From: an uncultured bacterium
GTDB taxonomy: Bacteria; Patescibacteriota; Minisyncoccia; Phycocordibacterales; PALSA-1337
Direction: 5' to 3'
DNA length: 64,000 bases
NCBI GenBank assembly: GCA_903839725.1
Contig: CAIMDG010000002.1
Coordinates: 65,078 to 129,077 of the forward strand
Within the stretch, counting starts at the first letter, position 1. Every line of letters starts with the position of its first letter. Both the position numbers and the translations under genes were made by a program. Of the stretch, positions 1,651 through 62,569 are shown piece after piece. Under the pieces are notes generated by a model. That model saw only the letters and a list, made by a program, of their open reading frames with translations. It searched no databases and was not told the origin of the DNA.

Positions 1651-3042
<1,392 letters not shown>

Positions 3043-3109
3043 AGCTCGTGATTAAGTATTTGACATATAAAATAATTAATGGCAATATGATTTAAAACAA
3101 TATTGCTCT

Positions 3110-3913
3110 TTGAATTTGAGCAAGGAAGGAAACATGCTAAGCAAAATTGCAGCTGATAATCTCAAAAAAGACGGAAAAGTTTTAGGTGAGAAATGGTTTC
3201 AGACTTACGGCGGTTGGTTCTCTGACCGTGAGAACATGCAAATATTTACCGATTCGATAATCCGTGGTTGTAGCCTCAGAGCTCAACATGATCTTGAAAT
3301 ATTATATGTAGGATCTGCTTCCGGCGAACTCGGCGAACAGTTTGTTCGTGCACTTGGTGGAGGCCATCTTACACTTGTTGATGTGGCCGAGGAACATCTT
3401 AAACTTAATACAAATCCAGCAACAACCAAATTGTGCATGGATGTCCTCGGAATGAATCTCAACAAAAAGTTTGACATTGTCATGATGCGGAGTTTCCTTG
3501 ATTACTTTCCCACAATGAATGAACAAATCGCAGTTCTTAAGGTAGTCAAAGAACACCTACGACCGGGCGGATTGTTTATTAATCAACCAGCATCTATTCC
3601 CACAGCGCACGCGCGAAATGTAATCAGTCGAGCATATTGTAGTGTGCCCAATATTGGCAAACGTTTATTTCAAAGCTGGGACATTGGACACTTATATGCA
3701 AGTGCAGGACTCGGTGGTGCCCCGTTTATATACGGAGATGGCAAAATTATGCGCATCACCGAACAAGATCACATCGCACGTTATGCCATTACACCTACTG
3801 ACATTGTTACCCTGCAGACAATATTAAAAGACGCCGAACGTTCAGTAGAGATAACAAAAAATGGTTACACCCTCTCGTTCGAATTCCCAATCCTTGCAAA
3901 GTTCGTCCAATAA
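3110..3913 (+). CDS. hypothetical protein, class I SAM-dependent methyltransferase-like fold
   Basis: 'ILYVGSASGELGEQ' (motif I-like), 'FDIVMMRSFLDYFP' and 'LRPGGLFINQ'. Alternative start at 3134. Confidence 0.4.
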   Translation: MNLSKEGNMLSKIAADNLKKDGKVLGEKWFQTYGGWFSDRENMQIFTDSIIRGCSLRAQHDLEILYVGSASGELGEQFVRALGGGHLTLVDVAEEHLKLNTNPATTKLCMDVLGMNLNKKFDIVMMRSFLDYFPTMNEQIAVLKVVKEHLRPGGLFINQPASIPTAHARNVISRAYCSVPNIGKRLFQSWDIGHLYASAGLGGAPFIYGDGKIMRITEQDHIARYAITPTDIVTLQTILKDAERSVEITKNGYTLSFEFPILAKFVQ

Positions 3914-32688: not shown

Positions 32689-32711
32689 ATAATTCTAATC
32701 TTTTTCTACAG

Positions 32712-32782
32712 AGCCAAATGTGGGAATCGGACCCACGTTCCTGCTTTACGAAAGCAGTGTTCTGCCACTGAACTAATTTGGC
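32712..32782 (-). tRNA. tRNA-Thr (anticodon CGU)
   Basis: Acceptor GCCAAAT/ATTTGGC, anticodon loop 'TTCGTAA', T-stem GTGGG/CCCAC. CCA not encoded. Confidence 0.8.
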
Positions 32783-33276
32783 TTAGTCCTTACAAATAAA
32801 CGTCCTTCTGAAACTCTTTTACTTACTATTCTATTTGTACGTCCATTTCCCTTATTTGAACCGCCATATGTCGGTGTAAGTGAATCGCAATTTGGACAAA
32901 GTAACCTAAGATTACTTTCAATATTGTTGCGCCAGTTGCCATCGATATGATCAGCAACAAGAGGAACTATACCAGTTTTAGTATTGATTATCGACCACCC
33001 ACACAATACGCATCTATTTCCATACTTCTTTCTCAAGTATTCTTTGACGTTAACAGAAACAGTACCAATACTACTCAAACCACTTATCTCTCCCAATTTC
33101 CATTTTTCTATATATGTTCTTCTCTGAAACTCTAACTGACATTTATTACTACAATACGTATACCTTGATCGCCCAGGTACAGTTGAACAGACAAGACATA
33201 CATTTTTATTCTTTCTTGGCATTGGCATAATATCGAGTATATCCAATACTAAAAATACCGTCAAAATTTTATACAA
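32773..33276 (-). CDS. HNH endonuclease (free-standing, between two tRNA-Thr genes)
   Basis: N-terminal zinc ribbon 'CLVCSTVPG...CSNKCQ' and HNH motif 'ADHIDGNWRNNIESNLRLLCPNCDS'. Start lies 3 nt after the tRNA-Thr(GGU) 3' end. Confidence 0.7.
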   Translation of the reverse strand: MYKILTVFLVLDILDIMPMPRKNKNVCLVCSTVPGRSRYTYCSNKCQLEFQRRTYIEKWKLGEISGLSSIGTVSVNVKEYLRKKYGNRCVLCGWSIINTKTGIVPLVADHIDGNWRNNIESNLRLLCPNCDSLTPTYGGSNKGNGRTNRIVSKRVSEGRLFVRTKPN

Positions 33277-33278
33277 GG

Positions 33279-33541
33279 AGCCGTTGTCCGGGATTGAACC
33301 GGAGACCTCGTCATTCGTTTACACCTCACCTTACGGGAGGACTAGACTGTATCTTTTTCCATAAAATATATGGAAACCCTTGTCAGTCGTTCGGGTGTTA
33401 CCTATTGTAACGCCACGGTCTTATCCTTATACATTGATAGGACTTTAACCGTTATTCGGGATTCACGTATATGTTACCAAGTACGTGGGCAGGGTCTTAC
33501 GACCTACCAATGACGTGCTCTACCAACTGAGCTACAACGGC
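33279..33541 (-). tRNA. tRNA-Thr (anticodon GGU) interrupted in the anticodon loop by a ~190-nt putative group I intron
   Basis: 5' exon 33506-33541 reads 'GCCGTTGTAGCTCAGTTGGTAGAGCACGTCATTGGT'. 3' exon 33279-33315 reads 'AATGACGAGGTCTCCGGTTCAATCCCGGACAACGGCT'. Joined, they give a canonical 73-nt cloverleaf with loop UUGGUAA. Confidence 0.6.
33316..33505 (-). ncRNA. putative minimal group I intron (inserted between tRNA positions 36 and 37)
   Basis: The 5' exon ends in U and the intron ends in G. The intron contains 'AAAGATACAGTCTAGTCC' resembling the group I S element 'AAGATATAGTCC', with a 'GACTG' candidate P7 partner. Confidence 0.45.
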
Positions 33542-33830
33542 GATTTTCCTTTCCCAAGGAAAATCGGATCGAAGATTTCTTTCGGCGTAAGCCGATAGAA
33601 ATCTGAGACCAGAATTCCTCTACCAATTTCAATCAAGTGCTTTCTATCGCGCGAGCGACAAGATGTACGAGACCAGATTTTCAACTTACTACCACAACGA
33701 CCTAAAACCATTATGGTTGCCTAAGAATAGTCTATTTATCAGATATTTTCAATCAAACAGATTCCGTATTGATATCCTATAAAAAAAGACTATAATCTAC
33801 ACCAGTAAACTTTGAACCCCTTGAAAGCAT

Positions 33831-57515: not shown

Positions 57516-57518
57516 GTG

Positions 57519-57605
57519 CGGAGAGAGTGGGATTCGAACCCACGGTTCCAATAAAGGAACGGCGGTTTAGTAAACCGCTGCCTTAAACCACTCAGCCATC
57601 TCTCC
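57519..57605 (-). tRNA. type II (long variable arm) tRNA, Ser-like acceptor, apparent anticodon ACU
   Basis: Acceptor GGAGAGA/TCTCTCC, variable hairpin 'GTTCC-TTTATT-GGAAC', T-loop 'TTCGAAT'. The anticodon arm GCGGT-'TTACTAA'-ACCGC has A at position 34. Confidence 0.6.
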
Positions 57606-58223: not shown

Positions 58224-58312
58224 TGGAGACGTGGTGGAGTGGTCTAACATACCTCTTTGCTAAAGAGGCAGGCCTCTTATAGGGCCTCGAGGGTTCGAAT
58301 CCCTCCGTCTCC
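58224..58312 (+). tRNA. tRNA-Ser (anticodon GCU)
   Basis: Acceptor GGAGACG/CGTCTCC, anticodon loop 'TTGCTAA', long variable arm, T-loop 'TTCGAAT'. Confidence 0.85.
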
Positions 58313-58549
58313 GCAAAATACCGAGCGAAGCGAGTGTATTTTCGCGGGACGAAGCGAGGCGACTGCTCGCCTCGCGTGAGGGATTCGAAAAGGTTGAGTA
58401 TATGGCGCGGAACGAAGTGAGCACCATACGAAACCTGTACCGAAGCTGTAAGCTTCGAATCCTGATTTAGGAAAATCACCTACTGGGCTCCTTCTTCGCC
58501 AATAGACCGAGACTATTCATGCATATCTATATAATGTATATTCTTATTC

Positions 58550-62492: not shown

Positions 62493-62496
62493 TTGT

Positions 62497-62569
62497 GCAC
62501 GCGGAGGGACTCGAACCCCCGACCGATCGAGTATAAGTCGACTGCTCTACCAGCTGAGCTACGCGTGCA
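62497..62569 (-). tRNA. tRNA with apparent anticodon UAU (Ile, AUA-decoding)
   Basis: Acceptor GCACGCG/CGCGTGC, anticodon arm GTCGA-'CTTATAC'-TCGAT, T-loop 'TTCGAGT'. Confidence 0.65.

Follow-up and report, generated by a model that had tools for sequence, protein, structure and literature searches.

What interrupts the tRNA-Thr(GGU) gene in this stretch of bacterial DNA, and is the nuclease-like gene that follows it connected with the interruption? The whole 64,000-nucleotide stretch that was analyzed is called the window here. When positions 32700-33700 are read on the minus strand, a first tRNA exon (GCCGTTGTAGCTCAGTTGGTAGAGCACGTCATTGGT) is followed by a 190-nt insert (AGGTCG...TAAACG, with ends that read AGGTCGTAAGACC...GGTGTAAACG) and then by a second exon (AATGACGAGGTCTCCGGTTCAATCCCGGACAACGGCT, running AATGACG...CAACGGCT). 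With its intron mode (-i) enabled, ARAGORN calls tRNA-Thr(ggt) with i(37,190) at this locus, and the joined exons form a perfect 73-nt cloverleaf. The initial annotation of this DNA had already placed a split between tRNA positions 36 and 37 at the exon coordinates listed in Table 1, and had described a canonical cloverleaf with the anticodon loop UUGGUAA, an upstream exon ending in U, and an insert ending in G. All of these points are upheld by the sequence, by ARAGORN, and by an orthologous gene that carries no intron. The split tRNA is thus confirmed, and for its insert, which lies in the anticodon loop, we put the probability of a compact group I intron at roughly nine in ten.

Table 1. 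Features of the split tRNA-Thr(GGU) locus. Coordinates are those of the window; intron position i corresponds to window coordinate 33506 - i.
Feature	Window coordinates	Strand	Remarks
5' exon, tRNA-Thr(GGU) positions 1-36	33506..33541	-	Last base U36 is the splice-site U-1; same as the 5' half of intron-less L006
Group I intron, 190 nt (probable)	33316..33505	-	ARAGORN -i, covariation-backed P1-P9, weak RF00028 match; omegaG at 33316
3' exon, tRNA-Thr(GGU) positions 37-73	33279..33315	-	Anticodon-stem pairs spanning the intron 100% paired, all covary
P1	33488..33508	-	Exon G34-G35-U36 against intron C18-C17-G16; the U36.G16 wobble marks the 5' splice site
P2 hairpin	33464..33487	-	Intron 19-42; ~10 bp, GNRA tetraloop (GUAA); up to six pair types per position; also in the MFE fold
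P3, 5' strand C46-C48	33458..33460	-	Partner G127-G129
P4	33415..33452 (including the enclosed part)	-	Intron 54-59 / 86-91, ACGGUU/GACCGU; encloses A-rich J4/5, P5, and J5/4
P5		-	Intron 63-83, inside P4; 4/5 pairs covary
P6 hairpin	33394..33414	-	Intron 92-112; double changes in 7/8 pairs, e.g. basal GG/CC to CC/GG
P7, 5' strand GACUG (R element, old name)	33384..33388	-	Intron 118-122; pairs with CAGUC
P3, 3' strand G127-G129	33377..33379	-	Closes the P3/P7 pseudoknot
P8 hairpin	33356..33376	-	Intron 130-150; double changes in 8/8 pairs
J8/7 (AAGAUA, 151-156) and P7 3' strand CAGUC (157-161)	33345..33355	-	"S element"; fits the RF00028 consensus AAGAUAUAGUC
P9 hairpin, GUAA loop	33324..33340	-	Intron 166-182; 5/6 pairs covary; the 3' tail UGUAAACG comes next, with omegaG as its last base
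omegaG	33316	-	Intron position 190, last intron base
151-aa zinc-ribbon and HNH nuclease-like gene	32773..33228	-	PHROG matches, invariant motifs, fold matches; not part of the intron system
tRNA-Thr(CGU)	32711..32782	-	Directly downstream of the HNH-like gene in 79/80 homologous loci

Evidence on the junction comes from relatives that lack the insert. At the same syntenic place, loci L006 and L007 carry an uninterrupted tRNA-Thr(GGU) gene containing ...CATTGGT|AATGACG..., which is exactly the ligation junction predicted for the window gene. The predicted spliced product is identical to this intron-less orthologue at 69 of 73 positions, and the four differences form two compensatory T-stem pairs. 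The anticodon stem spans the insert with five pairs; these form without exception among 101 homologues, and all five covary. Chance cannot account for such an arrangement. The window copy looks like a functional tRNA-Thr(GGU) gene.

Many genomes carry an insert of this kind. A species-representative genome collection was scanned with the pattern AAGATAYAGTCTAG-N(28-58)-GGTTCRANNCC, which returned at least 119 related stretches, almost all of them from Patescibacteria MAGs. Among the matches listed, the carriers include Saccharibacteria, Paceibacteria, Kaiser-, Wolfe-, Nomura-, Jorgensen-, Uhr-, and Peregrinibacteria and others, and a few records are labeled otherwise, as an isolate of Niastella populi, a MAG of Pedobacter, or MAGs of Gammaproteobacteria. 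Boundaries were set by the rule that the exon ends in UGGU, the insert ends in G, and the next base is A. Under this rule, 108 of 115 ARAGORN intron calls resolve to tRNA-Thr(GGU) 36/37 with U-1 and omegaG, a figure that is partly circular because these two nucleotides served as a selection criterion. All five anticodon-stem pairs can form in 106 of the 108 resolved members. The remaining seven calls lie outside the boundary-search range, and the five of them that were read by eye have matching exon ends and intron core (L052 and L098 were left out).

Inserts in the 108 resolved members measure 176-234 nt, with a median of ~192, and two others are shorter still (170 nt in L126, 171 nt in L082). 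The Azoarcus tRNA-Ile intron has ~205 nt. The suggestion that the window intron would be among the smallest group I introns is therefore not supported: it is shorter than the Azoarcus intron, but its size is not exceptional, as the family spans 170-234 nt. A length of 190 nt is typical of a large and already described family. One close relative, L005 (GCA_040384165.1), has a 203-nt insert at the same tRNA-Thr(GGU) site with a core identical to that of the window intron. The two differ by a compensatory U-A to C-G change in the anticodon stem across the insert, and by further compensatory changes in P6 and P9.

Over its whole length, the window intron can be aligned with 100 homologues, nearly all of which come from Patescibacteria MAGs. 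The resulting alignment (A2) comprises 101 distinct sequences, each made up of the intron and 12 nt of flanking exon at both ends. A canonical group I structure was proposed from the window sequence and then scored on this alignment. The proposed P1-P9 fold leaves 89.3% of cells paired, compared with 73.3% in column shuffles, and its covariation score of 0.405 (0.132 when shuffled) was reached by none of 500 shuffles. Sliding the partners by one to three columns lowers the score to 0.07-0.12. Both sides change in 42 of the 61 pairs; P2, P3, P5, P6, P8, and P9 all covary, and all helices stand in canonical group I order. Because P7 and most of P4 are invariant, they contribute no covariation evidence. 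When no structure is supplied, RNAalifold recovers the anticodon stem, an extended P1, P2, and P4 through P9, and the minimum free energy fold of the window intron alone gives matching hairpins (z = -3.06). The group I nature of the insert, first proposed from the single sequence, is in this way borne out by comparative structure, and the elements that had been named as the ones to look for in a fold (P1 with an internal guide, P3, and P7) are all found, P3 and the intron-side pairs of P1 with covariation.

Individual elements can be read in some detail. The P1 pairs U36.G16, G35-C17, and G34-C18 are present in 101 of 101 sequences. The helix is extended by pairs of intron positions +1, +2, and +3 with U15, C14, and C13, topped by a GUAA loop, and RNAalifold finds that these three intron-side pairs covary (GU:48 AU:27 GC:18 UA:7, etc.). 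P3 has only 3 bp, which are 99.3% paired and show a C-G to U-A double change at 3/3 pairs, and P4 is invariant except for exchange between U.G and C-G at 59:86. The 5' strand of P7 is invariant in 101/101 sequences even though it lies outside the search pattern; J8/7 and the 3' strand of P7 are likewise invariant in the family, but they are part of that pattern and so carry an ascertainment bias. These last two elements explain the "S element" of the initial annotation, which corresponds to the 3' strand of P7 with J8/7 and matches the RF00028 consensus (motif AAAGATACAGTCTAGTCC, located at 33356-33339 on the minus strand). A bulged C117 beside the G118-C161 pair forms the predicted guanosine-binding pattern in this P7, which is invariant, with its 3' strand fixed by the search pattern. 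The layout lacks P5abc, P2.1, and P7.1/7.2 and has a J7/3 of 4 nt, which fits a minimal IC3- or IA3-like arrangement. Both the helices and the splice-site nucleotides are visible in the sequence and its covariation.

Several other structural proposals were considered and set aside. A local hairpin, ACCC/GGGU (intron 110-113 / 127-130), was evaluated as P3 with P4-P6 outside; it shows no compensatory change and is equaled by 116 of 500 shuffles, and C111-C112 instead covary with G92-G93, with which they make up the lowest pairs of P6. In the window, the P2 loop reads UUGGUAA and could be mistaken for a mimic of the anticodon loop, but the family shows a plain GNRA tetraloop there (GUAA, GCAA, or GAAA) with variable closing pairs. 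An apparent covarying contact of intron position 188 with tRNA positions 31/39 is inconsistent (e.g. in L083) and probably reflects phylogenetic correlation. P10 was likewise dismissed as a meaningful helix and is essentially absent, since A37-U15 is the only pair available to it (at most ~1 bp).

These structural data also bear on whether the insert could belong to some other class of intervening sequence, such as a BHB-type tRNA intron removed by proteins, a group II intron, or an insertion element. The insert does sit in the anticodon loop close to 37/38, where introns occur in archaeal and eukaryotic tRNAs. However, the host is bacterial, the site is 36/37 with U-1 and omegaG, P1-P9 covary around a P3/P7 pseudoknot, the Rfam search gave no group II or other matches, and the insert has no ORF. 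We regard this class of explanation as having a negligible chance of being correct.

Standard annotation tools present a technical challenge at this locus. ARAGORN run without its intron mode does not report the split tRNA-Thr(GGU) gene, and an Rfam search of the whole window at gathering thresholds matches only uninterrupted tRNAs. When a 421-nt slice was compared with the group I model RF00028, the intron scored 18.5 bits (E = 0.018, match at 33324-33456), which does not reach the gathering score of 50. In that match, J8/7-P7-P9 and P8 align well, whereas the ACCC/GGGU hairpin is used as P3 and P4-P6 are deleted. Among 16 related loci, RF00028 failed to detect 15 of the Thr introns and gave one a score of 19.2 bits, while an intron of another tRNA, located in L079, reached 50 bits. 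Because RF00028 is known to miss the Thr(GGU) family (Nakagawa et al. 2026, PMC13011429), the low score is a limit of the model and not the failure of a biological feature. The initial annotation had named the lack of an RF00028 hit as grounds for refutation, a rule that would wrongly reject this intron.

Mislabeling adds to the difficulty. In related loci, ARAGORN -i reports Thr(GGU) 36/37, Arg(GCG) 34/35, or Pro(GGG) 35/36, and many copies carry one of the latter two labels. The Arg(GCG), Pro(GGG), His, and Leu calls were considered as other split tRNAs and proved to be shifts of the Thr(GGU) intron boundary by 1-2 nt. Because tRNA finders miss or mislabel the split gene, CPR genomes can seem to have no tRNA-Thr(GGU), and pitfalls of this kind are part of what makes the locus worth describing.

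A low model score could also be taken to mean that the tRNA-Thr(GGU) gene is a dead pseudogene, disrupted by a decaying intron remnant that no longer splices, and splicing in the Thr family is indeed a prediction from sequence. Several observations speak against this. Both exons are intact and close to the intron-less orthologue, with differences that are compensatory; the anticodon stem is maintained by covariation across the intron in all 101 sequences; and the intron core is invariant while its helices covary. Together, intact exons, covarying helices, and an invariant core indicate that purifying selection acts on the tRNA as well as on the ribozyme, and a dead gene is accordingly very improbable.

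If the insert is indeed a group I intron, splicing would proceed by the usual two steps. In the precursor tRNA, exon nucleotides G34-G35-U36 would pair with the internal guide G16-C17-C18 to form P1 with its U36.G16 wobble, and the P4-P6 and P3-P8/P7-P9 domains would come together at the P3/P7 pseudoknot. The attack after U36 would then be made by a free guanosine that occupies the predicted G118-C161 site of P7. In the second step, omegaG190 would take over the guanosine site and the 3'-OH of U36 would attack the G190|A37 bond, so that exon ligation yields mature tRNA-Thr(GGU) with its anticodon loop restored. Because P10 could supply so little pairing, the exons would be held in register mainly by the anticodon stem. 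Splicing of the Anabaena pre-tRNA intron is reported to depend on such anticodon-stem exon pairing (Zaug et al. 1993, a title cited in PMC13011429). For the window intron, catalysis, independence from proteins, and any regulatory role are inferred.

An intron of this type at this site has been published. Nakagawa et al. (2026, mSystems, PMC13011429) described "divergent group I introns" in tRNA-Thr(GGU) at 36/37 in three complete Patescibacteria genomes among their 95 complete genomes, and name Castelle et al. (2018) as the first to have noticed such introns. These Thr introns are missed by RF00028.cm but are detected by the tFind model gpI_bact_tRNA (PMC13011429; Williams 2020, bioRxiv 10.1101/2020.01.27.920355), and ARAGORN mis-called two of the three as Arg(GCG) 34/35 (PMC13011429, Table 1), a mistake that is reproduced in related loci here. 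The window intron shares with them the host phylum, tRNA, anticodon, insertion site, size class (~170-230 nt), the RF00028 blind spot, and the lack of an internal ORF, and nothing essential differs. It is a further member of this published family and is in that sense already known.

The discovery value of the locus is correspondingly small, as the intron type, the site, and the host phylum have all been reported. What is added here is a secondary structure for the Thr(GGU) intron family that is supported by covariation, and the finding that the family is far larger and more widespread than its three reported cases, since the scan extends it to at least 119 stretches, some of them outside Patescibacteria.

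Whether these introns form a separate kind of minimal ribozyme is a question on which only a tentative view can be offered. According to this proposal, the Thr(GGU) introns would be a distinct minimal branch of group I introns, characterized by a length of 170-190 nt, a P3 of 3 bp, and exon-guide pairing of 3 bp, that self-splice without protein and occur nearly exclusively in CPR bacteria; the branch would comprise at least 119 stretches and may have leaked into Bacteroidota and Gammaproteobacteria. In the phylogeny of Nakagawa et al. (PMC13011429), the Thr introns are nested within the IA clade, where they form a long branch, and not in IC3. Their self-splicing assays covered only Asn and Asp (35/36) introns (PMC13011429), and our literature search found no published self-splicing test of tRNA-Thr(GGU) introns. 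We consider the proposal possible but somewhat less probable than its negation. If it is true, Thr(GGU) introns would be the smallest natural self-splicing group I introns, and if self-splicing is confirmed, a family of 170-190 nt would make an attractive minimal group I ribozyme. The proposal is directly testable in Niastella populi (CCTCC AB 208238, locus L034), a cultured carrier whose intron measures 181 nt, and the availability of such an organism for experiments accounts for part of the remaining value of the family.

Comparison with other tRNA introns helps to place the family. Other Patescibacteria tRNA group I introns occur in the same phylum, likewise interrupt the anticodon loop, are mostly without ORFs, and sometimes share a locus with a Thr intron (as in L079). 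They differ in their insertion site, in being detectable by RF00028, and in that some have an internal HNH homing endonuclease; moreover, in vitro self-splicing has been shown for them, whereas splicing of Thr-family introns is deduced from sequence. A further comparison is with the group I introns of Azoarcus tRNA-Ile(CAU) and Agrobacterium tRNA-Arg(CCU), which were reportedly described by Reinhold-Hurek & Shub (1992) and belong to subgroup IC3. These introns are also small and ORF-less, sit in the anticodon loop of a bacterial tRNA, and are spliced after a U. In common with the Thr intron, their P1 is very short, with 3 exon bp, P2 and P9 end in GNRA loops, and the P1-P9 layout is minimal, lacking P5abc, P2.1, and P7.1/7.2, with exons presumably aligned by the anticodon stem. 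Unlike them, the Thr intron is too divergent for RF00028, has a P3 of only 3 bp, and is 15-35 nt shorter.

The second question concerns the gene that follows the split tRNA. The mechanically defined ORF (33276-32773) encodes 167 aa and corresponds to the initial reading of a start 3 nt after the tRNA 3' end. This start is not borne out: all homologues begin with MP.PKK at ATG 33228, so the gene most likely starts there, 50 nt after the tRNA, and encodes 151 aa. The reading frame closes with a TAG that overlaps the 5' end of tRNA-Thr(CGU) (32782-32711). The neighbor was correctly recognized as encoding an HNH endonuclease-like protein. Phage HNH endonuclease PHROG families match at E = 6e-17, and 25 homologues show no variation in either the zinc ribbon at the N-terminus (CxxC...CxxxC) or the HNH motif at the C-terminus (CxxC...DH..GN..NN...N...CPNC) (residues C73/C76, D93-H94, N102, N106, and C111/C114). 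Pfam gave no match for this ORF at E <= 0.01, and at E <= 1 only weak matches to HNH_3 and HNH, below their cut-offs; a sequence search of the PDB returned only I-HmuI (E = 0.29). It took the PHROGs and the predicted fold to establish the HNH identity. The predicted model (pLDDT 75) was matched by Foldseek to the HNH domains of ScoMcrA, Cap5, EcoKMcrA, and T4 EndoVII, with a best E of 0.021 and none at or below 0.001.

The presence of a genuine HNH homologue, with its DH..N..N residues and two CxxC pairs invariant, only 50 nt downstream of the split tRNA invites the view that the two form a collaborative homing system. By analogy with free-standing phage endonucleases beside ORF-less introns, the protein might cut intron-less tRNA-Thr(GGU) alleles in trans, and the intron would spread along with it and protect the site. 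The initial annotation likewise spoke of a homing-type endonuclease outside the intron. In all seven loci whose HNH protein is at least 72% identical to that of the window (L005, L129-L133, and L053), the gene and the intron are indeed both present, but this is also what vertical co-inheritance predicts, and inheritance of the intron appears to be mostly vertical in the window's clade.

Wider sampling argues against trans homing. The HNH gene lies downstream in just 11 of 85 intron-bearing loci that have at least 600 nt of downstream sequence. Conversely, a metagenome scan yielded 68 HNH loci with enough upstream sequence, which are preceded by an intron-split tRNA-Thr(GGU) in 9 cases, an intron-less tRNA-Thr(GGU) in 14, tRNA-Gly(CCC) in 14, and no tRNA in 31. 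Upstream of the HNH gene in these 31 tRNA-less loci, a search for the intron-core motif found none except in L192 (~850 nt upstream). The constant neighbor of the HNH gene is instead tRNA-Thr(CGU), just upstream of which it is fixed in 79 of 80 loci. Furthermore, representatives of more than 1800 clusters share ~65% identity in this protein, with conserved gene order, unlike a sporadic selfish gene. Phage free-standing HNH homing endonucleases (I-HmuI-like; PHROG 1271, 14736, and 10822) have the HNH beta-beta-alpha-metal motif and zinc ligands in common with the 151-aa protein, but the gene described here is conserved, syntenic, and single-copy in Paceibacteria-type genomes. The distributions of gene and intron are decoupled, and the HNH gene is not the homing enzyme of the intron. 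It looks like a vertically inherited resident neighbor and should not be annotated as the intron's homing endonuclease; a homing partnership is very unlikely, if marginally less so than a dead tRNA gene.

The setting of the locus is that of an ordinary bacterial chromosome. Flanking ORFs are housekeeping genes (a prfB-like release factor, ftsE, ftsX, CTP synthase, a gatA-type amidase, NAD-dependent DNA ligase, and a NUDIX protein), and the order tRNA-Thr(GGU), 151-aa HNH protein, tRNA-Thr(CGU), prfB, ftsE, ftsX, pyrG recurs in relatives, including the intron-less orthologue L006. A phage element was ruled out, as a BLASTN comparison with phage records yielded nothing beyond 38 nt of tRNA matched at chance level. 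Homologues of the HNH protein are annotated as Parcubacteria or Nomurabacteria; the window is part of a CPR/Patescibacteria chromosome, and its host is an ultra-small CPR bacterium of the Parcubacteria/Paceibacteria type. Contigs identical or near-identical to the window occur in groundwater-type metagenomes and in one NCBI MAG.

The intron family that interrupts tRNA-Thr(GGU) between positions 36 and 37 is also present in records that lack a Patescibacteria label (L012, L034, L036, L043 and L068). One of these is Niastella populi CCTCC AB 208238 (L034, NZ_LWBP01000002.1), a cultured Bacteroidota isolate in which a 181-nt intron lies on a 300-kb contig, and the others are a Pedobacter metagenome-assembled genome (MAG) and Gammaproteobacteria MAGs. 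Carriers labeled outside Patescibacteria suggest that the family is occasionally transferred. Furthermore, a cultured carrier such as N. populi makes the intron experimentally testable.

Members of the family vary in size. The smallest introns among the matches listed are 170 nt (L126) and 171 nt (L082), and both have a shortened P1 loop and P6. The P1 terminal loop also tolerates expansion, because two members (L023 and L102) carry insertions of approximately 25–40 nt at this site. Several CPR loci have a second intron-split tRNA, including ones for Asp, Tyr, Met, Ser and Leu, within a few kilobases of the split tRNA-Thr. Unlike the Thr introns, the second intron of one such locus (L079) scores 50 bits and so reaches the RF00028 gathering score.

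More than 1800 cluster representatives are approximately 65% identical to the 151-aa zinc-ribbon and HNH protein. Among homologous loci (L129–L208), tRNA-Thr(CGU) lies directly downstream of the HNH gene in 79 of 80, and the stop codon of the gene overlaps the 5′ end of this tRNA. The HNH gene looks like a conserved resident of Paceibacteria-type CPR that is tightly coupled to the tRNA-Thr(CGU) gene.

Variant neighborhoods can also be found. On one contig (L003, ena:ERZ27313189:k141_496), the split tRNA-Thr, the HNH gene and tRNA-Thr(CGU) are all identical to those of the window, but the upstream side differs and carries smpB, a PLD-like gene, infC and rpmI. Either the region immediately preceding the split tRNA has been rearranged at the strain level, or the contig is chimeric through misassembly. 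At one HNH-homolog locus (L009), which departs from the usual prfB gene order, a reverse-transcriptase (RVT_1) ORF flanks the HNH gene, whose 3′ end is overlapped by an opposite-strand ORF for a large serine recombinase.

Elsewhere in the window, both ARAGORN and Rfam predict a tRNA-Ser with the anticodon ACU, an A34 anticodon that is unusual among bacteria; this gene is oriented divergently from a normal tRNA-Ser(GCU). There is also a tRNA-Ile(UAU), which is uncommon in bacteria, where AUA is usually read by a lysidine-modified CAU tRNA.

Coordinates of the features discussed
Feature	Location	Strand
Zinc-ribbon and HNH protein gene	window 32773-33228	-
tRNA-Thr(CGU)	window 32711-32782	-
tRNA-Ser pair, ACU (A34) and GCU	window 57518-57605 and 58225-58314	- and +
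tRNA-Ile(UAU)	window 62495-62568	-
Split tRNA-Thr, N. populi	L034:5196-5450	
Split tRNA-Thr, 170-nt intron	L126:2752-2997	
Split tRNA-Thr, 171-nt intron	L082:6384-6629	
Split tRNA-Thr, P1 insertion	L023:2706-2959	
Split tRNA-Thr, P1 insertion	L102:3639-3879	
HNH-homolog locus	L009:476-1228 and 1779-3456	
Second split tRNA	L079:1738-1996	
Second split tRNA, Asp	L032, L067, L096	
Second split tRNA, Tyr	L046, L069	
Second split tRNA, Met	L040, L059	
Second split tRNA, Ser	L049, L070	
Second split tRNA, Leu	L077
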